Shown one piece after another: positions 29,115-60,839 of a stretch of DNA of 64,000 nucleotides. The notes beneath the pieces are model-generated. The model ran no database searches, had not been told where the DNA came from, and saw nothing but the letters and a program-made list of their open reading frames with translations. The DNA is from a virus (taxonomy: Duplodnaviria > Heunggongvirae > Uroviricota > Caudoviricetes). The stretch lies in the IMG/VR virus record IMGVR_UViG_3300005076_000001, positions 23,361 through 87,360 of that record; one strand, written 5' to 3'. The position numbers were made by a program, and so were the translations under genes. Every line of letters begins with the position of its first letter. Position 1 is the stretch's first letter.

Positions 29115-30029
29115 TCAGATTACATTCAACATTGTAACAGACATTTCCTGCTTTGTTCTAACATTTTTACGTGTGCGAGAATATTTCCCACAACATTTAC
29201 ATTGCATTGTCTCAAATGAGGACAAGGCTGTGTGTGAGAGCTTATCGACATGCTTCAGATCAGATGAGCCACACACGACACAACGAACAACAGAATCATT
29301 ATAGTATAGGGAAGCGTTAGGTGCAAACTTATCGTAAGGACGAAGCTTCTTATACACTTCCTCAAGGACAAGAATGTCTTGGACATTATACTCTTCCATC
29401 TCAGCCCATGCTTCTTCATCCATCTGCATAACACGCTTCCACAGAGAGAAGCCAGAATGTTTCATCTTCTGTTCTGTCAAGCCCAGATAAGCAGCAATGG
29501 AATCAAGAGAGTTAGAAGGAAAGCGGAAATTCTGCTTTGCAATCTTCAACGTATCCACCACTTTATGAGGAGCGAAAGGTGTCATGCCATGATACAACAT
29601 GCGTGTAGCAATCGTCGGCATATCGAACTTCACGGCATTGTGCGCAATCACAACCTGAGCACTATCAATAAGCTCTTTCATCTCCTTCACAATGTCATAG
29701 TCATTCTCTGGCTCTTTGACACGAGAGAAAATAATACTATCCTCACCTAACCATTTAGCTGCATAGCACAGAATGTACCCTTCCTTCTCTACATTCTCTT
29801 GTCCAATATTAGCCTTCCATCTGCGGAATGTATAAGCTAAGAATGGTGCTGTCTCAATGTCAATAATGAGAATGCGTGGAGCTTGTGACACAGATTGCGT
29901 ATTGCTTTGCTTTCGATGACTTCTAAGCATATCAGACACTGTACTCTTGCTAACACCAAGACGACGCCCAATCTCACGCCAAGAAATCCCTTGCTTGTCT
30001 AGCTCAATTGCTTGTTGTTTCCAATTCAT
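29115..30029 (-). CDS. DnaQ-like (DEDDh) 3'-5' exonuclease with N-terminal HTH and C-terminal Zn-ribbon
   Basis: HTH ISWREIGRRLGVSKSTVSDML; Exo I ILIIDIETAPF, Exo II VIAHNAVKFD, Exo III YNVQDILVLEEVY; C-terminal CVVCGS...CKCCGK. Confidence 0.55.
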   Translation of the reverse strand: MNWKQQAIELDKQGISWREIGRRLGVSKSTVSDMLRSHRKQSNTQSVSQAPRILIIDIETAPFLAYTFRRWKANIGQENVEKEGYILCYAAKWLGEDSIIFSRVKEPENDYDIVKEMKELIDSAQVVIAHNAVKFDMPTIATRMLYHGMTPFAPHKVVDTLKIAKQNFRFPSNSLDSIAAYLGLTEQKMKHSGFSLWKRVMQMDEEAWAEMEEYNVQDILVLEEVYKKLRPYDKFAPNASLYYNDSVVRCVVCGSSDLKHVDKLSHTALSSFETMQCKCCGKYSRTRKNVRTKQEMSVTMLNVI

Positions 30030-30214
30030 TCAAGTGTCTCCATAACGGTGCGAGAATATACTTTCACAAGACCTAAATTCTGCGCCTCTTTAAAAGTGTA
30101 CGAGGTGTTTTCGTGAATTGCCTCCTCCAAGTCTGCAACAGCCAACTCATAAGTTGCATAGATGTTGTTGTTAATACCTAAATCCCACTCTGCCCAGATA
30201 GTGTACACTTTCAT
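30026..30214 (-). CDS. hypothetical protein
   Basis: 62 aa ORF, ATGA overlap with downstream gene. Confidence 0.3.
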   Translation of the reverse strand: MKVYTIWAEWDLGINNNIYATYELAVADLEEAIHENTSYTFKEAQNLGLVKVYSRTVMETLE

Positions 30215-30231
30215 TCATAATCCTCCTCTGC

Positions 30232-30380
30232 TGCGTTAGCGTGATAACCACATTCCCAGCCATCCCAGTAGGCAATGAGTGCTATGACAGTAGCTTCTGT
30301 CTCGTTAGCTTCAAGCCATCTATTAGCCTCGTCAACAGAAATTCCAACACGTCTTGCAAAGTCAATAACGTCCAGTTTCA
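30232..30380 (-). CDS. small HTH protein (Xis/AlpA-like fold candidate)
   Basis: 49 aa ORF not in track: MKLDVIDFARRVGISVDEANRWLEAN...; ATGA overlap with upstream ORF. Confidence 0.25.
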
Positions 30381-30746
30381 TTGTTTATTCTCCAGCATGT
30401 CAGGGTATTTCTTCATAAGCTCTTTCAGCTTCTTACGCTCTTTCTCCTCCTCTTTACGTTTCTTCTCTTGCTCTTTCCCTACACGAGCTTTCCATTCGTC
30501 TTCTGGCTCATCAACAAAACCAACAAGAACAAGCTCATAACCAGAAGGAAGAATGCGCCACTCAACGTCTCTACCAAACACTTCAATACTGCTACCTCCC
30601 TCCCACCATTCCTCCTTACAAGCCTCCAATGTTTTTGTAAGAGCTTTTTGTAGTTCATCCACACTGTAGGTATCACTGTAGCAGCTTTCGTCGTAAGTGC
30701 CGTGTGCAATGGTGCTACTTCCTACATAAATCTTCTTACGTTCCAT
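30378..30746 (-). CDS. hypothetical protein with Lys/Glu-rich C-terminus
   Basis: 122 aa ORF. Confidence 0.3.
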   Translation of the reverse strand: MERKKIYVGSSTIAHGTYDESCYSDTYSVDELQKALTKTLEACKEEWWEGGSSIEVFGRDVEWRILPSGYELVLVGFVDEPEDEWKARVGKEQEKKRKEEEKERKKLKELMKKYPDMLENKQ

Positions 30747-45050: not shown

Positions 45051-45224
45051 TTAGTTTCTCCAATGTTAAACAGTTTCATAAGGCTTCGTTGTACAACGTC
45101 AAAGACATTATACACGAATGTTGCGTACATGTGCAAGAGGGACATTTACTCTCCTTCCGTTCTGTTGATGTGCTCAATATAGAGGATGGGTGGAGGAATG
45201 TCAAGCACAATTTGCAAAAGAAAA

Positions 45225-45248
45225 AGAGCATACAGAAATGTATGCTCT
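45225..45248 (-). terminator. minus-strand terminator (conserved AGAGCATACA hairpin family)
   Basis: AGAGCATACA-gaaa-TGTATGCTCT; on minus strand followed by TTTTTCTTTT; 10 nt downstream of HEG stop. Confidence 0.6.
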
Positions 45249-45257
45249 TGAAGGTTG

Positions 45258-46568
45258 TTACACACGTTCCTTTACAGAGTAGCTCATCAGTGCGTGATAC
45301 GCAGCGGGAATGATATGCTCTTTCCATTTCTCAGCAAGACGTCTGGCATAAGCTTCTTTGCAACCACAATATGCTTCATGGGCTTCCTCTTGAGTTGGGA
45401 AGAATCCAAGGTATTCCCTACCTTTCTCTGTGTTGCAACGAGCAATGTACCCAACTGTCTCATTAGGTGTTTTAGGCTCAATGATGTGTACACCACGCAA
45501 GAACTTGGAGTCGCTCGGCTCGATGAGGAACTTGTTAACTTCTGATGGTAGGAAACAACAGCCTTCTGGCCCGTACACTTTGTTGTTAGGAATCAACAGG
45601 TCTTTGTCAAGTTCAAACTTAGGTAGTTGCCAGTTTGGTTGTGCCAAACCCCATTCAGCGAAGTTATGAAAATTCCACCACCTTTGGTCTACCTCTTTAT
45701 CCTCATAGCTTCTACCTGTTGGTTTTTGCAACTCAAACTCATTGTAACAGCGACTGAACATCCTTACCCAATAACCGTACATCCGCTCTGGTGCATGTTC
45801 ACCACGCTTGCTGCCGCGAGGAACAAACCTGCCAACACCAAAGAAACCTCTACCCTCTACAGACGGCTGCGTTGGTGGTTTAATACCGCCACTCAAAATA
45901 TTAGCAGAAGCATTCCAAGACTCGCTACCATCTTGCCATCGAATGAGAACGTCATGTGGCCCTTCGTAGCCAATAACTTCGCCTTCCCAACCGCTATTTG
46001 TTTTGAACTTTTGCCCAATACGGACAGCGCCTGTCGGATGCCTTACATTACCTTCTTTTAGGTTGTTCCAAGAAGTAACAACTTCACTTCCATCCTCAAA
46101 GGCAACTAGAATCTTTGTGGCGTTTACAAACTGTTTAACCACAACACTCCCGTAGTTGTTCGTAGAGAATACAGTACCAATCTCCGGTTTGCTCTTGGTT
46201 GGATGGCGATTGTGCCCTTGTCGAAGAACTGCAATGTTGGTAGTATGCTCCGTTCCATCGCTCAACCACTTAACACGCATCTCGGAGTTTTTCAATACTT
46301 CCACAATCTCAACAACATCACCGTCATGGCAAGGGAATTGTTGCCCAACGTAAGGCTTACCGAACGTAGGATGAAGTGGGCGCTGTTGTTTAATATAAGT
46401 GCCGGTGGTTGTCACAATAGCCCCGTCAAGGTCGAAACGAACGTCAATGTCCTTTCTTCCTCGGTATGCAACAATCTCAACTTCAAGCCCCTGTTTGTTT
46501 GTATAGCGATAGCCTACAAAATAGGCACCTTTCCTACTACCCATATACCCTCCCAATAAATAAGCCAA
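45258..46568 (-). CDS. HNH-type homing endonuclease with four N-terminal ~50 aa tandem repeats and C-terminal AP2 domain
   Basis: Repeats ending in (R/L)HP; nuclease-like WWNFHNFAEW...LDKDLLIPNNKVYGPEGCCFLPSEVN; AP2-like GREYLGFFPTQEEAHEAY; paralog of 33953..34585. Confidence 0.5.
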   Translation of the reverse strand: MAYLLGGYMGSRKGAYFVGYRYTNKQGLEVEIVAYRGRKDIDVRFDLDGAIVTTTGTYIKQQRPLHPTFGKPYVGQQFPCHDGDVVEIVEVLKNSEMRVKWLSDGTEHTTNIAVLRQGHNRHPTKSKPEIGTVFSTNNYGSVVVKQFVNATKILVAFEDGSEVVTSWNNLKEGNVRHPTGAVRIGQKFKTNSGWEGEVIGYEGPHDVLIRWQDGSESWNASANILSGGIKPPTQPSVEGRGFFGVGRFVPRGSKRGEHAPERMYGYWVRMFSRCYNEFELQKPTGRSYEDKEVDQRWWNFHNFAEWGLAQPNWQLPKFELDKDLLIPNNKVYGPEGCCFLPSEVNKFLIEPSDSKFLRGVHIIEPKTPNETVGYIARCNTEKGREYLGFFPTQEEAHEAYCGCKEAYARRLAEKWKEHIIPAAYHALMSYSVKERV

Positions 46569-52634: not shown

Positions 52635-52820
52635 TCAAAATCCACATTTCTTTTCTCCTTTAGGTTTTAACTGTATGCCGCCCTCGACACAACGTATGTC
52701 AAATATAGCATTGATGTTCTTGCTTGTCAACTCTTTTACGTATTCTTCTGCCTCTTCCTTTGTATCTCTGTAGCCACACAACATTGTCTTAGGCAGACGT
52801 TGGCAGATGATGTATTTCAT
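52635..52820 (-). CDS. first gene of leftward early operon, hypothetical
   Basis: 61 aa, RBS ACAGGAGAACACCC; directly downstream of promoter/operator. Confidence 0.35.
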   Translation of the reverse strand: MKYIICQRLPKTMLCGYRDTKEEAEEYVKELTSKNINAIFDIRCVEGGIQLKPKGEKKCGF

Positions 52821-52840
52821 TGGGTGTTCTCCTGTTGTTT

Positions 52841-52895
52841 GTTAACATGTCCACGTACTCGTACACATGTTAACTTGCTTGTGAGGGTGTGTCAA
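52841..52895 (-). promoter_or_regulatory. leftward early promoter TTGACA-N17-TAACAT overlapped by perfect 10-bp inverted repeat operator
   Basis: minus-strand TTGACA (plus 52890-52895), TAACAT (plus 52867-52872); IR GTTAACATGT(52841-52850)-N14-ACATGTTAAC(52865-52874) covers -10 to +20. Confidence 0.5.
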
Positions 52896-53233
52896 GCAAA
52901 TTCTTCATGTGCAGATTGTCTCTAAGTTTGTGACAGATTTCTGCTACGCCCTCTTGACAAAACAGCATTCTTGTGAGACACTATGCTTAGTTGGACGTTT
53001 GGCCTACGTACAGGCACTGCCAAATTTTAGGGGGAAGGAAGCACAGACATGTGTTTGCTTCGGCAGTAGGTGTTGTCAGGAACCTCAGAGAATACGCTCA
53101 AGGAACAGGACACACGCTCTCTTTTCTTCATGGAATCTATAAAAATTCTATGGGGGATTAGGGGGTAGTGTGTCTGAATTTCCTAGAGAATATATCTATA
53201 ACATACTAACATACTAAGATACAGGAGATAGAA

Positions 53234-53920
53234 GTGATAAGTTGTAACGTATACATACTAACAGACAAGACAAACAAAGCAGTAAAGATAGGGATAACAA
53301 AGAAACATCCAGATGTACGTATCTCTACTATCAACAAAGAAGCAACGAAGTACAAGTTTGTTCTTCATAAGTTTGAAACAATGTCCACACCAAAGGCAAG
53401 GTGGGTAGAGAACAAGTTGCTTGATGCATTAGAGAAGATGGGTGGCGCTTGGGTTGAAGATGATGATTTTGGTGGTGTAACGGAAGTTGCTACACTTGAT
53501 GTAACCAATGTTGTGTTTGATGCTTGTGTCTCGTATCTAGACAATCTTCTCCTCACTCTGGCAGAACAAGAGTTCAAAGAACGAAGTTACACAGAACTAG
53601 AAAATGACAGCAGTGTTCTCAAAATTCCTCTGAATCTTCTTGGTGCAAAATACCTGCACAACCTTTTCACAGATGCTAAAATTCAACTAGACCTTACACA
53701 CAAGGTTTTGCTGTGCTTGCTAAAGGACGATGGTAACGTAGACCAATCCACACTTGCAGATGTTTGTGGGGTTAGCAGACACTCTGTTTTGCGTGCAATT
53801 TCTATGCTGTCCTCTTGTGGCATTGTCGAGGTTGTTAAGGTGCGAGCAAGCAATGGAGCCGTGTACAACAACTATGTGGTGCATGAAATTGATGGTGTAG
53901 CATTTGTAGCATACAAATAA
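53234..53920 (+). CDS. T5orf172 (GIY-YIG-like) domain + winged-helix DNA-binding protein
   Basis: GTG start with CAGGAGATAGAA RBS; N-terminal VYILTDKTNKAVKIGITKK; C-terminal wHTH LLKDDGNVDQSTLADVCGVSRHSVLRAISML. Confidence 0.45.
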   Translation: MISCNVYILTDKTNKAVKIGITKKHPDVRISTINKEATKYKFVLHKFETMSTPKARWVENKLLDALEKMGGAWVEDDDFGGVTEVATLDVTNVVFDACVSYLDNLLLTLAEQEFKERSYTELENDSSVLKIPLNLLGAKYLHNLFTDAKIQLDLTHKVLLCLLKDDGNVDQSTLADVCGVSRHSVLRAISMLSSCGIVEVVKVRASNGAVYNNYVVHEIDGVAFVAYK

Positions 53921-53933
53921 ATCCATTCTAGCC

Positions 53934-53962
53934 TTGACATGCCCTCTTCGGAGGGCTATTAT
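53934..53962 (+). promoter_or_regulatory. promoter TTGACA-N17-TATTAT with GCCCTC-TTCG-GAGGGC hairpin in spacer
   Basis: -35 53934-53939; -10 53957-53962; hairpin 53941-53956 may also terminate upstream gene. Confidence 0.35.
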
Positions 53963-53998
53963 CCGTATATAGACACTGACAACGTAAGGAGAAACCAA

Positions 53999-54637
53999 AT
54001 GAAATCTATCAACTTAGCCAACCTGAAAGAACAACGCTTTAACAAGCTGCAAGAAAGCCTCTGGCTCGATTACGAATCCTTAACCAAAGCAGGTGCAATT
54101 ATTGCTGGCGGCAGCTTGCGCACACTGATTGACAAAGAAGATGAAGTGTGCGACATTGATCTTTTCTTCAAAGATGAGGAAAGTATTGCTAACACTAAGA
54201 AATTGCTTGAAGACAACGAATACGTTTGTGTGTTCCAATGTCCTCTTGGCTACCTTTCCACTTATTACAAGTTCAGTGAGAAGATTGTTGGTGAACGCTT
54301 TGACGGAAGCCCTGAATACGAAGTGGTGAGTAAGGTGCAACTGATTACACGAGACTTGTATATTGATCTGGAACATGTTGTTTCGTCTTTTGATCTGATG
54401 CCATGTTGTGTTGCAATGGATGATGAACGTATTGTGTTTGCTGATAAATGGGTGAAGAGTGTCAAGAAGAAAATGCTCTACTTGAACAACCTTACCTACC
54501 CTGTTGCTACATTGAATCGAATTGACAAATACAAGCGCAAAGGCTACTATGCCAGTGAAGCATTTTATGTAAACATTATCACAACAATTCAGAGCAGCAG
54601 CTTTGACGGTGACAGAATGTCCTTGTACATCGACTGA
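53999..54637 (+). CDS. nucleotidyltransferase-fold protein (pol beta superfamily, minimal NTase)
   Basis: AGGSLRTLIDKEDEVCDIDLFF matches hG[GS]-x9-13-DhD NTase signature; ATG 53999 with AAGGAGAAACC RBS. Confidence 0.5.
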   Translation: MKSINLANLKEQRFNKLQESLWLDYESLTKAGAIIAGGSLRTLIDKEDEVCDIDLFFKDEESIANTKKLLEDNEYVCVFQCPLGYLSTYYKFSEKIVGERFDGSPEYEVVSKVQLITRDLYIDLEHVVSSFDLMPCCVAMDDERIVFADKWVKSVKKKMLYLNNLTYPVATLNRIDKYKRKGYYASEAFYVNIITTIQSSSFDGDRMSLYID

Positions 54638-57672: not shown

Positions 57673-58409
57673 CACAACGTACCGAACAAATTAAAGTGGA
57701 GTTCATTGACAAGATGGGCAGTGACAAGCGCATTTGTAACGCTGCTCGCGTTTCATTTGCCAAGTGGGATGATACTGAAGAAATCACTGAGGCAGATAAG
57801 GGATTGCTTCGTTATCTTGCTACAGGTTTGCCAAAAGCTGAACGTGACGATTGGGAGAAACGTGCAAAAGCACACACTCATTTCACACCTTTCTGCCATG
57901 CAACACTATCTGTTCGTGTAACTGTTCCTATCTTCGTTGCACGACAATTGCACAAACATGTAATCGGTTTGGTGATTAACGAAGAGTCTCGTCGTTACAT
58001 TACAAACGATGTTAAGCTTTTTATTCCAGATGTTGTGCATAAAGCCCCAGCACATGCAAAGCAAGGTGCAAGTGATGAAGAGCACACTGCTATTGTAGTG
58101 AAAGAGGCTAAGTTTGGAGGTGATGATCTGACAGCAAAACAGCTTATTGAACAGCAAACAAATGCTGCTGTCGATGTGTACGAGGCTCTGCTAGACGCAG
58201 GAGTTGCACCAGAAGAAGCACGTATGGTATTGCCTTTGAATACAATGGTGACGTGGATTTGGACAGGCTCTCTTCTGGCTTTCAACCGTGTTTATCAACA
58301 ACGTATTGACAGCCATGCACAGAAGACAGGTACGCAAGAGTTTGCCGAGAAGCTTGGTACAATTCTCTATGAATACTTTCCGCATAGTATGGAAGCACTA
58401 AACAATTAG
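57669..58409 (+). CDS. thyX: flavin-dependent thymidylate synthase
   Basis: 246 aa; ThyX signature HKHVIGLVINEESRRY (RHR-x7-S-x-RY type); C-terminal MVTWIWTGSLLAFNR. Confidence 0.75.
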   Translation: MTQRTEQIKVEFIDKMGSDKRICNAARVSFAKWDDTEEITEADKGLLRYLATGLPKAERDDWEKRAKAHTHFTPFCHATLSVRVTVPIFVARQLHKHVIGLVINEESRRYITNDVKLFIPDVVHKAPAHAKQGASDEEHTAIVVKEAKFGGDDLTAKQLIEQQTNAAVDVYEALLDAGVAPEEARMVLPLNTMVTWIWTGSLLAFNRVYQQRIDSHAQKTGTQEFAEKLGTILYEYFPHSMEALNN

Positions 58410-58420
58410 AAACACACATG

Positions 58421-58450
58421 AGAGCATACATTTCTGTATGCTCTTTTTGT
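58421..58450 (+). terminator. rho-independent terminator (AGAGCATACA hairpin family)
   Basis: AGAGCATACA-tttc-TGTATGCTCT then TTTTTGTTTTTG. Confidence 0.65.
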
Positions 58451-58458
58451 TTTTGTGC

Positions 58459-58487
58459 TTGACAACATGCTTGCTGTGGATTATATT
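58459..58487 (+). promoter_or_regulatory. sigma70 promoter TTGACA-N17-TATATT
   Basis: -35 58459-58464; -10 58482-58487. Confidence 0.5.
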
Positions 58488-58519
58488 AGCTACATCAACA
58501 ACGAAGCAGGAGAAAGAAC

Positions 58520-58765
58520 ATGAAACAATTTCCGTACGCACAGCAAATCATTTGGGAGAATGATGTTGAGCAAATTGAATGGGAAGAGCAGTATGGGAAG
58601 TGCTGGAAATCGACTCTTTACGTTGCCAAAACCCATAACACGAAAGACGTTGTTGTAGGCGGGTTCTCCAGCAGGAATACAATTGGGGATGAGATTTTAG
58701 TGTTCATGACACCTAACGGTAGACAGCTTGAAGTAAGTAAACTCTTGTGCTGGGCAAAGCTATGA
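58520..58765 (+). CDS. hypothetical protein
   Basis: 81 aa ORF. Confidence 0.3.
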   Translation: MKQFPYAQQIIWENDVEQIEWEEQYGKCWKSTLYVAKTHNTKDVVVGGFSSRNTIGDEILVFMTPNGRQLEVSKLLCWAKL

Positions 58766-58932
58766 CAAGTGGCTACTATTTCATTAAGCTAGCTACAAAC
58801 GTAGCCCTTCCAATGTACGTCATATGTCTTGACGAACGCATGTATATTTGGCAGAATGGGAAACAACAATGGCTGCAATTGAAGAAAGAGCAAATAATGG
58901 GTGAACGTCTTACGTATGAGGGAGATAAGTAA
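58747..58932 (+). CDS. hypothetical protein
   Basis: 61 aa ORF. Confidence 0.25.
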   Translation: MLGKAMTSGYYFIKLATNVALPMYVICLDERMYIWQNGKQQWLQLKKEQIMGERLTYEGDK

Positions 58933-59768
58933 TGCTATACAACATCCTCAAACAACTTCAAGAAACACCGAGTACAAACGATAAGCTTTCTATTTTGAAA
59001 GCAAACAAAGACAATGAGACATTGAAAGAATACATGCGTCTTGTTTGTTGCCCTTCTGTCTCGTTTTATATTACAGCAAAGACGTTTCCTGTTGTATCTA
59101 AGATAGGGACACATACATTCCAGTCTCTCATGAATGCTGGGTATTCTCTTGGTACAAAAGAACTTTCTCAACGTCATGTTACAGGACAGGCAGCAAAGAA
59201 TTTTATTGTTGCTACAATGGAAGACCTTGATGAAGAGCACCAACAACTGTACAAAATGCTTCTTCTCAAGGACATTCGTGCGAAAGTGGGGGCAACACTT
59301 GTGAATAAGGTGTGGCCTAATTTGTGTGTCTCTGTTCCATATCAACGCTGCTCTCTTCCAGATGAAAAGACATTGGAGAAGTTTAAGAATGGAGAACAGT
59401 TCTTTGTTCAACTTAAATACGATAGTTCTTTTGCATATGCGTTCAAGTCTCCACGTGAATTTGCCCTTATTACAAGGGCCGGGTCACGATACCCCAAAGA
59501 AATTGCAAGTATCATTACAGAAGACATTCCAGAGAACTACGTGTTGATGGGTGAGTTAGAGGTTGTTTACAAAGGGGAAGTCCTTTCTAGAAAAGATGGC
59601 TGTGGGGTGCTAAATAGCTTGTTGAACGGAGGGCCGTTACCTTCTGGTTGTGGGCTTCAATTAACTGCGTGGGATGTTGTCAGTGTTGAAGAATTTTCAA
59701 AAAGTAAGAGTGACAAACCGTACTGGGAAAGACTCAACCTGCTGAGGGGGATGTTCACGAATGAGTGA
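58932..59768 (+). CDS. ATP-dependent DNA ligase (T4 gp30-like), N-terminal fragment (through motif IIIa)
   Basis: MLYNILKQLQETPSTNDKLSILKANKDNETLKEYMRL ~ T4 ligase N-terminus; VNKVWPNL; motif I region QLKYDSSF; LITRAGSRY; ends where T4 ligase continues. Confidence 0.7.
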   Translation: MLYNILKQLQETPSTNDKLSILKANKDNETLKEYMRLVCCPSVSFYITAKTFPVVSKIGTHTFQSLMNAGYSLGTKELSQRHVTGQAAKNFIVATMEDLDEEHQQLYKMLLLKDIRAKVGATLVNKVWPNLCVSVPYQRCSLPDEKTLEKFKNGEQFFVQLKYDSSFAYAFKSPREFALITRAGSRYPKEIASIITEDIPENYVLMGELEVVYKGEVLSRKDGCGVLNSLLNGGPLPSGCGLQLTAWDVVSVEEFSKSKSDKPYWERLNLLRGMFTNE

Positions 59769-60342
59769 TAATTTACACTGGGAAGATTATTTCTACTACG
59801 ACGAAACAAGTCCTAGTTGTCTAAGGTGGAAAGTTTCTGTGTACAGTGGATGTGGGTTAAAAACACAGAATGTCAGAGAAAACCAAGAAATCCAGCATAA
59901 AGATCGTGAAGGGTATTTTGTTGTTGGGTTGATGAAGAGGAGACATAAAGTACATAGAATAATCTATGAGATGTTCTACGGAGAAATCCCAGAGGGCATG
60001 GTGATAGACCACGTAGATAGAGACAAAGAAAACAACAAGATTGAGAATCTGCGCGCAGTTTCATGCAAAGTTAATTCCAGAAATACTAAAAGATACTCCT
60101 CCAACACGTCTGGGGTGACAGGGGTTAGTTTGCAAACCTCTTATAAGTCTTCAGGAAATTACACAGCGTATGTTGCAAATTGGACAGATTTAGAAGGAGT
60201 AAAACACGGAAAGTCATTTTCCATCCTTAAATATGGGGAAGAATTGGCATTGAAATTGGCCGAGGAGTATAGACGCAGTAAGATTGCGGAGCTTAATGCG
60301 CAAGGAGCTGGGTACAATGACACACATGGGGATGTGCTATGA
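59761..60342 (+). CDS. HNH_3 homing endonuclease with AP2 domain, inserted between ligase halves
   Basis: IDHVDRDKENNKIENLRAVSCKVNSRN HNH_3 motif; AP2-like GVTGVSLQTSYKSSGNYTAYVANW...ELALKLAEEYRR; own SD GAGGGGGA; ATG overlaps ligase-N stop. Confidence 0.75.
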   Translation: MSDNLHWEDYFYYDETSPSCLRWKVSVYSGCGLKTQNVRENQEIQHKDREGYFVVGLMKRRHKVHRIIYEMFYGEIPEGMVIDHVDRDKENNKIENLRAVSCKVNSRNTKRYSSNTSGVTGVSLQTSYKSSGNYTAYVANWTDLEGVKHGKSFSILKYGEELALKLAEEYRRSKIAELNAQGAGYNDTHGDVL

Positions 60343-60839
60343 AAAATATTAAACTCGCAGAAACACACACAGTTACGTCACTGGAGGGTGCTTTTGAGAT
60401 CTATTCCAGATATGTTGAGCAAGGTTATGAGGGTGTGATTATTAAGACAAAAGATTTTTTGTGGAGTTCGTCTACAAGTAAGGAATGTCTCAAGCTGAAA
60501 GTGGAAGCAGAGATTGACTTGATTTGGACAGACAGTGTGGAAGGCAAGGGGAAAGCTGCCGGAATGCTTGGTGCTATGTGCTTGCAAAGCTCTTGTGGAC
60601 GTGTTAAAGTGGATTGTGGCACTGGCTATACAGATGCACAGCGTAAACAGCTTTGGGAAGAACGTAGCAGCCTGCATGGCTCTGTTGTGACGGTGAAAGC
60701 CAACGACCTCGTCTCGAAGGAAGGCAGCAATGTGTTGTCTCTATTCCTACCTGTGTTCATTGAGCTACGTGAGAAGCAAGAGGCAGACAGCTTGGAACGT
60801 ATTGAGCAAATTTTCAATGCTGCTAAACATATTGCTTGA
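60339..60839 (+). CDS. ATP-dependent DNA ligase C-terminal fragment (motifs IV, V and OB domain)
   Basis: EGVIIK (motif IV), CLKLK (motif V), GKGKAAGMLGAM...LFLPVFIELRE aligns with T4 ligase C-terminus; own SD GGGGA; ATGA overlap with HEG stop. Confidence 0.7.
   Translation: MKNIKLAETHTVTSLEGAFEIYSRYVEQGYEGVIIKTKDFLWSSSTSKECLKLKVEAEIDLIWTDSVEGKGKAAGMLGAMCLQSSCGRVKVDCGTGYTDAQRKQLWEERSSLHGSVVTVKANDLVSKEGSNVLSLFLPVFIELREKQEADSLERIEQIFNAAKHIA

Follow-up and report, generated by a model that had tools for sequence, protein, structure and literature searches.

A perfect inverted repeat on the conserved leftward early promoter of an uncultured myovirus: at best a young repressor site, quite possibly functionless

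Promoter-occluding operators with dyad symmetry are known from lac O1 and its repressor LacI, from the LexA boxes, and from OR and OL of the lambdoid phages, and QacR IR1 is a long palindrome at the start site that is bound by two dimers. The sharpening of quasi-palindromes by slippage or template switching is likewise a known mutational process. Published work regards T5orf172 genes as homing endonucleases that sit at recombination boundaries and can exchange their DNA-binding modules (PMC10448857); I-TevI is an autorepressor, and the T5orf172-related CapR is a promoter-binding repressor (PMC8096241). The operator of HpaR, a member of the MarR family, consists of TTAA-N4-TTAA pairs (PMC7180172).

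Here we consider a perfect inverted repeat in the window, by which we mean the whole 64-kb stretch of DNA that was analysed. The window represents most of the ~87-kb genome of an uncultured myovirus with distant kinship to Felix-O1/PAK_P1-type phages (its portal is ~41% and its primase/helicase ~43% identical to those of Pseudomonas phages); a DNA similarity search against cultured phages returned no match, near or distant. The repeat is situated in the strand-switch region (Table 1), a site of divergent transcription that coincides with the minimum of the cumulative GC skew, the skew here simply tracking gene orientation. As in the lac O1, LexA, lambdoid and QacR operators, the dyad symmetry lies across the -10 and +1 of a sigma-70 promoter, here the leftward early promoter P_L, and the 34-bp length of the repeat resembles that of sites occupied by paired dimers. 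Unlike the classic operators, however, the site stands alone, it has not been conserved together with its promoter, and its binder is a candidate only. Judging from sequence comparison, we consider the repeat to be at best a young repressor site, and quite possibly without function.

Table 1. Features of the window, with the homologous promoters of alignment A1 in coding-strand orientation
Feature	Position	Strand or direction	Details
Structural genes	up to ~22.5 kb	rightward	
Long leftward block	24-52.8 kb	leftward	includes DNA polymerase and primase/helicase
Strand-switch region	52.82-53.23 kb		holds the repeat and the promoters
Rightward gene block	from 53.2 kb	rightward	
First leftward gene with its RBS	52635-52833	minus	61 aa; RBS AGGAGA 52833-52828, ATG at 52820
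Left arm of the repeat	52841-52850		GTTAACATGT; would be ~+11 to +20 of the leftward mRNA, read ACAUGUUAAC
Spacer between the 10-bp arms			CCACGTACTCGTAC; 14 nt
12-bp insertion	52855-52866	minus	GTGTACGAGTAC; MAFFT placement, ambiguous by ~2 nt
Right arm of the repeat	52865-52874		ACATGTTAAC; includes the -10 hexamer TAACAT (52872-52867, minus strand)
P_L	52867-52895	minus	TTGACA 52895-52890, 17-nt spacer, TAACAT 52872-52867
P_R, divergent promoter	52954-52982	plus	TTGACA, 17-nt spacer ending TTGTGA, GACACT (extended -10 type)
First rightward gene	53234-53920	plus	228 aa; N-terminal T5orf172 (GIY-YIG-type) and C-terminal winged helix; candidate binder or homing endonuclease, taken as context of the repeat
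Other perfect repeat	23252		bidirectional terminator
Other perfect repeat	44481		intragenic
Other perfect repeats	45225 and 58421		two identical terminator hairpins
Other perfect repeat	61409		terminator
A1, window/L015			GCTTGACA-CACCCTCACAAGCAAGT-TAACAT-GTGTACGAGTAC-GTGGACATGTTAAC-AAACAACAGGAG
A1, L027			...AAGC-TAACAT-GTGTACATGTAAAC...
A1, L020			...AAGC-TAACAT-CTGGACATGTAAAC...
A1, L018			...AACC-TATCAT-GTGGATATGTAAAC...
A1, L021/L022			...AACC-TATCAT-GTGGGCATGTAAAC...

The perfect 10-bp inverted repeat that a sequence-only reading of this DNA had reported is present with exactly the sequence and position given for it, and its placement from the -10 to about +20 of the promoter is also as described: with a start that we infer at about 52860, the arms span approximately -14 to -5 and +11 to +20. 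The symmetry goes beyond that description, however, for it runs on into the 14-nt 'spacer'. In its extended form the repeat is a 34-bp quasi-palindrome (52841-52874) whose arms, at 52841-52855 and 52860-52874, are paired at 13 of 15 positions around a 4-nt centre; as single-stranded DNA it is predicted to form a hairpin of -12.2 kcal/mol (z = -5.4).

The hexamers of P_L agree with the sigma-70 consensus (TTGACA/TATAAT) at 10 of 12 positions and are separated by a distance within the usual 16-18 nt. About ten strong promoters of the form GC-TTGACA-17-TAnnAT, P_L among them, make up a family in the window, and no repeat lies on any of the others. The place of P_L at the head of the leftward operon, where the strands switch, bears out the proposal that it feeds this operon, and on the minus strand no promoter-like site was found further upstream within ~1.7 kb. 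The right arm, because it is the -10 hexamer of the predicted P_L, would remain untranscribed, and the predicted leftward leader is unstructured (-3.4 kcal/mol, z = +1.8). A better promoter match (TTGACA-17-TATATT with an upstream TG, 11/12) is found inside the 61-aa gene at 52730-52702 on the minus strand; it is also retained in L018, where it is coding.

Five homologous metagenomic loci were found via homologues of the 61-aa first leftward protein (P0005-P0011) and the contigs encoding these, and their promoters were aligned with that of the window and of L015, an identical contig (MAFFT alignment A1; Table 1). The -35 hexamer is invariant in this alignment, the spacing is 17 nt throughout, and the -10 is TAACAT or TATCAT; with these elements and the leader and RBS all kept in L027, L020, L018 and L021/L022, the earlier promoter call holds. 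The dyad is absent from all of these homologous promoters. In the place of the left arm the relatives have ACATGTAAAC, ATATGTAAAC or GCATGTAAAC, and in that of the right arm GCTAACAT(G/C)T or CCTATCATGT. The 12-bp block, which on the plus strand is the tandem pair CGTACT CGTACA, occurs only in window/L015 and is missing from L027, L020, L018, L021 and L022; likewise, only window/L015 carries GTTAAC at both outer ends, where the relatives have GTAAAC at one end and either GCTAAC or CCTATC at the opposite end. The repeat is completed by two substitutions (GCTAAC to GTTAAC and GTAAAC to GTTAAC), and the palindrome is thus limited to this lineage because it was created by the 12-bp insertion together with these two changes. 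The relatives possess a partial symmetry at the promoter (5-8 of 10 positions, with a 2-bp spacer), because the self-complementary ACATGT occurs twice. That the arm differences run in a symmetrising direction does not constitute independent evidence, since perfection was the criterion by which the site was chosen. In more distant relatives the promoter is TTGACA-17-TATTGT (L002 and L007) or TTGACA-17-GATGAT (L016) and bears no repeat, and a search of IMG/VR with the conserved-promoter pattern gave no match. A cysteine-rich gene of ~101-102 aa (L018 3896-4204, L020 2580-2888, L002 6515-6820) is the first leftward gene in these three genomes, where it separates P_L from the homologue of the 61-aa gene; the window and L016 are without it.

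The exact arm-spacer pattern was obtained in none of 100 shuffles, but a fairer test of chance counts all perfect repeats with arms of 10 bp or more and spacers of up to 30 nt; the 64 kb contain six of these, where 2.5 +/- 1.6 are expected. As the other five are four terminators and one intragenic repeat, the repeat at P_L is the sole non-terminator intergenic perfect repeat in the window. Further copies of the arms (with at most one mismatch) number 7 in the 64 kb against 7.1 expected, with no others at promoters, and a half-site regulon or a set of auxiliary operators was rejected on this chance-level frequency of arm copies in the window. Also rejected as a signal was the clustering of TAACAT in the control region, where four copies occur in 365 bp; these are not independent, because they consist of the two repeat arms and one tandem repeat. 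The exact dyad has four matches in 596 Gb of genomes, none of them phage-related, against ~2.7 expected by our own estimate. Its earlier description as a classic repressor operator is sound as regards geometry, but not as regards an established operator, the dyad being absent from every homologous promoter recovered and having no second site in the window.

The composition of the genome provides a background against which the repeat can be viewed. Palindromes are avoided: the median observed/expected ratio is 0.18 for palindromic hexamers and 0.85 for other hexamers, 13 of the 64 palindromic hexamers are absent from the window, and GATC occurs at 0.18 of expectation, which suggests heavy restriction pressure by the host. 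The words from which the repeat is built (ACATGT, GTAC, ACGT and CATG) are among the few palindromic words not avoided. The GTTAAC (HpaI) sites in the arms had been thought worthy of attention, and they are unusual in that this word is depleted ~3-fold and has two of its six window copies here, but no link to function was found.

On the other side of the strand switch, P_R is conserved in L016, L018, L020, L021 and L027. The 228-aa protein encoded by the first rightward gene has only three homologues among 5.8 billion proteins and, by tblastn, no match in cultured phages; a PDB sequence search produced weak wHTH matches only (CodY and ArsR, E 0.03 or worse), and the AlphaFold model has a pLDDT of 47. 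This T5orf172-wHTH gene is present in the window, L016 and L017 and absent from L002, L018, L020 and L021. In L018, L020 and L021 a gene of 438-440 aa takes its place after P_R, and the gene that follows is 93% identical to window 53999-54637; presence/absence polymorphism of an endonuclease-like gene among close relatives is a property of homing endonuclease genes. In a comparison with L017, nucleotide divergence is ~4% over codons 1-140, mostly synonymous, whereas over the winged-helix codons 141-200 it is 36%, both synonymous and non-synonymous. Such a pattern implies a swap of the winged-helix module by recombination, and the comparison indicates that the window's module is the product of a lineage-specific swap; the gene has the appearance of a free-standing homing endonuclease whose specificity has been exchanged.

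The locus thus shares with other T5orf172 genes (PMC10448857) the exchange of the DNA-binding domain as a module, and with I-TevI and CapR (PMC8096241) the proximity of a GIY-YIG/T5orf172-type gene to a promoter with a candidate site. It differs in the DNA-binding domain, a C-terminal winged helix in the window protein but zinc fingers in CapR and the ICP1 genes, and in that I-TevI represses its own promoter, whereas the candidate site in the window is on the divergent promoter. The L016 homologue is 64% identical to the 228-aa protein and does not come with the window's repeat; L016 has an L017-type module, and a different perfect palindrome, TGTAAAATATTTTACA, lies 7 bp upstream of its P_R -35. 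No perfect repeats exist in the control regions of L002, L018, L020 and L021, all without the gene, and the control region of L027 has imperfect repeats only (the rightward genes there are outside the comparison). It is suggestive that perfect palindromes in the P_L/P_R control region appear to accompany the wHTH gene, in two genomes (the window and L016). The sequence-only reading had named this wHTH product as a candidate binder: a winged helix is indeed present, but the T5orf172 architecture has been treated in the literature as homing-endonuclease-like (PMC10448857), and the L016 homologue occurs without the repeat. Its other candidate, at 30232-30380, can be dismissed, the containing ORF (30211-30381) having no detectable DNA-binding domain. 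An HTH-exonuclease (29115-30029) is a further putative binder.

We favour, with slightly less than even confidence, the interpretation that the repeat is a neutral, insertion-derived palindrome on a genuine promoter. The working element would be P_L itself, a host sigma-70-type early promoter that would fire leftward from about 52860 into the 61-aa gene and the replication-gene operon. The ancestral stretch from the -10 to the RBS would already have contained two ACATGT, the first of which overlapped the -10 while the second lay in the leader, and a 12-bp tandem-type insertion with two substitutions would have converted it into the perfect 10-bp repeat (13/15 in the extended form). We infer no dedicated binding protein; the effect would be a 5' leader 12 nt longer and an altered initial transcribed sequence. 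Such a history resembles quasi-palindrome sharpening, in that the imperfect palindrome of the relatives became perfect and longer via a self-complementary insertion and point changes, but as there are changes in both arms, one template-switch event does not account for them. The neutral interpretation is favoured by a promoter that is kept without the palindrome, by the repeat-free promoters of the more distant relatives and of the same family in the window, by the lack of a second arm copy beyond chance, by the ~2.5 perfect repeats of this size that chance alone would give per window, by building words that the genome does not avoid and by the chance-level number of exact dyads in the 596 Gb. 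It is less comfortable with the position of the only non-terminator intergenic perfect repeat, exactly on the P_L -10 to +20, with a palindrome-avoiding genome that tolerates a 34-bp palindrome including two of the six GTTAAC sites, and with the restriction of perfect control-region palindromes to the window and L016, together with the swapped winged-helix module. These latter observations would fit a young pair of regulator and site.

One form of such a pair, possible but rather doubtful on present comparisons, is a young promoter-occluding operator, on which a dimer or a pair of dimers bound to the -10 to +20 dyad would block the binding or escape of RNA polymerase; as binder one may think of the T5orf172-wHTH protein, with repression as a moonlighting function, but also of a different early phage protein or of a host factor. 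Dyad symmetry and position suit an operator, as does the singular status of the repeat among intergenic sequences of a genome that avoids palindromes. The adjoining gene encodes a winged helix whose recognition module is 36% diverged from L017 against 4% in the rest of the gene; L016, with the other module type, bears its own palindrome beside P_R, the gene-less L002, L018, L020 and L021 have no perfect control-region repeat, and there are precedents in I-TevI autorepression and in promoter repression by CapR (PMC8096241). Yet the repeat is not kept in any homologous promoter, it is one site with no auxiliary copies, and its association with the wHTH gene amounts to two genomes. Moreover, the centres of the 10-bp arms are separated by 24 bp, an unusual distance for one dimer, the 228-aa protein has a structure model too poor for use, and if the T5orf172 nuclease is active, a high-affinity site in its own genome would be hazardous. 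It is unlikely that the palindrome and the T5orf172-wHTH gene form a young specificity pair in which the winged helix, newly acquired by recombination, would recognise the P_L dyad; the protein may then be a moonlighting repressor of the divergent early operon, or a homing endonuclease that targets the uninterrupted promoter of rival phages and for which the insertion serves as the carrier's immunity mark. Considered by itself, the idea that the insertion is a polymorphism giving self-immunity at the target site of the neighbouring homing-endonuclease-like gene seems improbable. The T5orf172-wHTH protein would cut the uninterrupted P_L of gene-less phages, of the type TAACATGT-GG-ACATGTAAAC, and the insertion would split the carrier's site. 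The polymorphism of the gene, with the 438-440-aa gene in its slot in L018, L020 and L021, agrees with this, as does the fact that the only large difference in the conserved promoter, ~390 bp from the gene, separates carrier from non-carriers, and T5orf172 genes are described as modular homing endonucleases at recombination boundaries (PMC10448857). Against it, this promoter type has one carrier genotype only, L016 is also a carrier and has a quite different P_L, and the non-carrier L020 has exactly the same -35 and spacer, which would belong to the supposed co-conversion tract.

Two further alternatives invoke folding of the nucleic acid itself. A DNA-structure element, that is, a cruciform or single-strand hairpin for replication initiation or promoter melting, is slightly less probable still: the 13/15 arms and 4-nt loop give the predicted stability mentioned above, and the location at the GC-skew minimum and divergent transcription site would be apt, but the skew follows gene orientation, the structure is absent from relatives that must replicate alike, and its shortness and AT-richness do not favour stable extrusion. 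Very improbable indeed is a hairpin of the leftward mRNA that would serve as leader structure, processing site or intrinsic terminator. It could fold if both arms were transcribed, but the right arm is the -10 and no upstream promoter-like site lies within ~1.7 kb; the leader is predicted to be unstructured, there is no T-run, the terminator scan found none, and Rfam offered nothing relevant, whether searched at the gathering threshold or with permissive E-values. A terminator or leader hairpin was rejected on the missing T-run, the identity of the right arm with the -10 and the leader z of +1.8.

A resemblance to the operators of HpaR was also considered. The repeat can be read as two 12/14 copies of a GTTAACATGTTAAC box 20 bp apart, and in the Pseudomonas hpaR-hpaG intergenic region (L026), one of the four matches of the exact dyad in the 596 Gb, two GTTAACATGTTAAC boxes stand 20 bp apart at a promoter, matching the published HpaR site (PMC7180172). 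The boxes of the window, however, are TTAA-CATG-TCCA and TACA-CATG-TTAA. Membership among HpaR/MarR operators was rejected, because each window box keeps only one TTAA half; in addition, no MarR-family gene scores above threshold in the window (MarR and MarR_2 reach 13.7 and 15.9 bits in the 228-aa protein, far below the cut-offs of 24.6 and 27). Pairs of GTTAACATGTTAAC, a 14-bp palindrome, occur 20-21 bp apart in three G+C-rich settings that are unrelated to one another: upstream of a terminase-like pair of phage genes (L001 1623-1656, the single and unrelated match of the exact dyad in IMG/VR), after a purD-like gene in an archaeal MAG (L023 4153-4187), and in L026 (2629-2662), where they are probably HpaR operators.

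If the dyad is bound, it would represent a site for regulation or immunity that has arisen recently in a virulent lineage of Felix-O1/PAK_P1-like phages, beside a modular T5orf172 nuclease gene, and a small, tractable case of mobile nuclease genes interacting with core phage promoters; if the specificity pair is true, a selfish nuclease gene would be rewiring or exploiting the conserved early promoter of its phage. If instead the palindrome is neutral, as we tentatively prefer, then a perfect 10-bp repeat on a promoter is insufficient for calling an operator, and it is the comparison of five homologous promoters that shows one indel to have made the repeat.

Several other features of the window deserve mention. 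Just upstream of the T5orf172-wHTH gene are short tandem repeats that look like iterons (53198-53221, plus strand; TAACATAC TAACATAC TAAGATAC); L017 has one unit fewer than the window, and L016 has, at 495-560, ~2.5 copies of a 20-bp unit with CTAACATC. Downstream of P_R there is a strongly structured, untranslated leader of 250 nt (52984-53233, plus strand) with an RNA MFE of -79.8 kcal/mol (z = -5.3), in which a long hairpin contains a pyrimidine run paired with GGGGG-N3-GGGGG. Its motifs recur in L002 (6100-6425, minus strand), where the first gene is a different one, in L016 (325-644) and in L017 (1-179). The leader has no match in Rfam; it may have a regulatory role or represent a non-coding RNA of the phage.

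The second rightward gene (53939-54637, plus strand, with a likely true start at 53999) encodes a protein 93% identical to one of L018; the L018 homologue is assigned to PF26128 (Gad2) in the collection's precomputed annotation, and our own Pfam scan gave no match. A promoter-like TTGACA-17-TATTAT (53934-53962) is found just upstream of this gene, with the hairpin GCCCTC-TTCG-GAGGGC in its spacer. A repeated terminator-promoter cassette is present on opposite strands at 45140-45275 (minus) and 58395-58525 (plus), consisting of a hairpin, AGAGCATACA-TTTC-TGTATGCTCT, with a T-run, followed directly by the promoter TTGTGC-TTGACA-17-TATATT and then by ACATCAACA. Finally, a gene for an HNH and AP2-domain endonuclease (59761-60342) lies between the ORFs 58932-59768 and 60339-60839 on the plus strand, which by eye resemble two halves of one gene, possibly a putative ligase.
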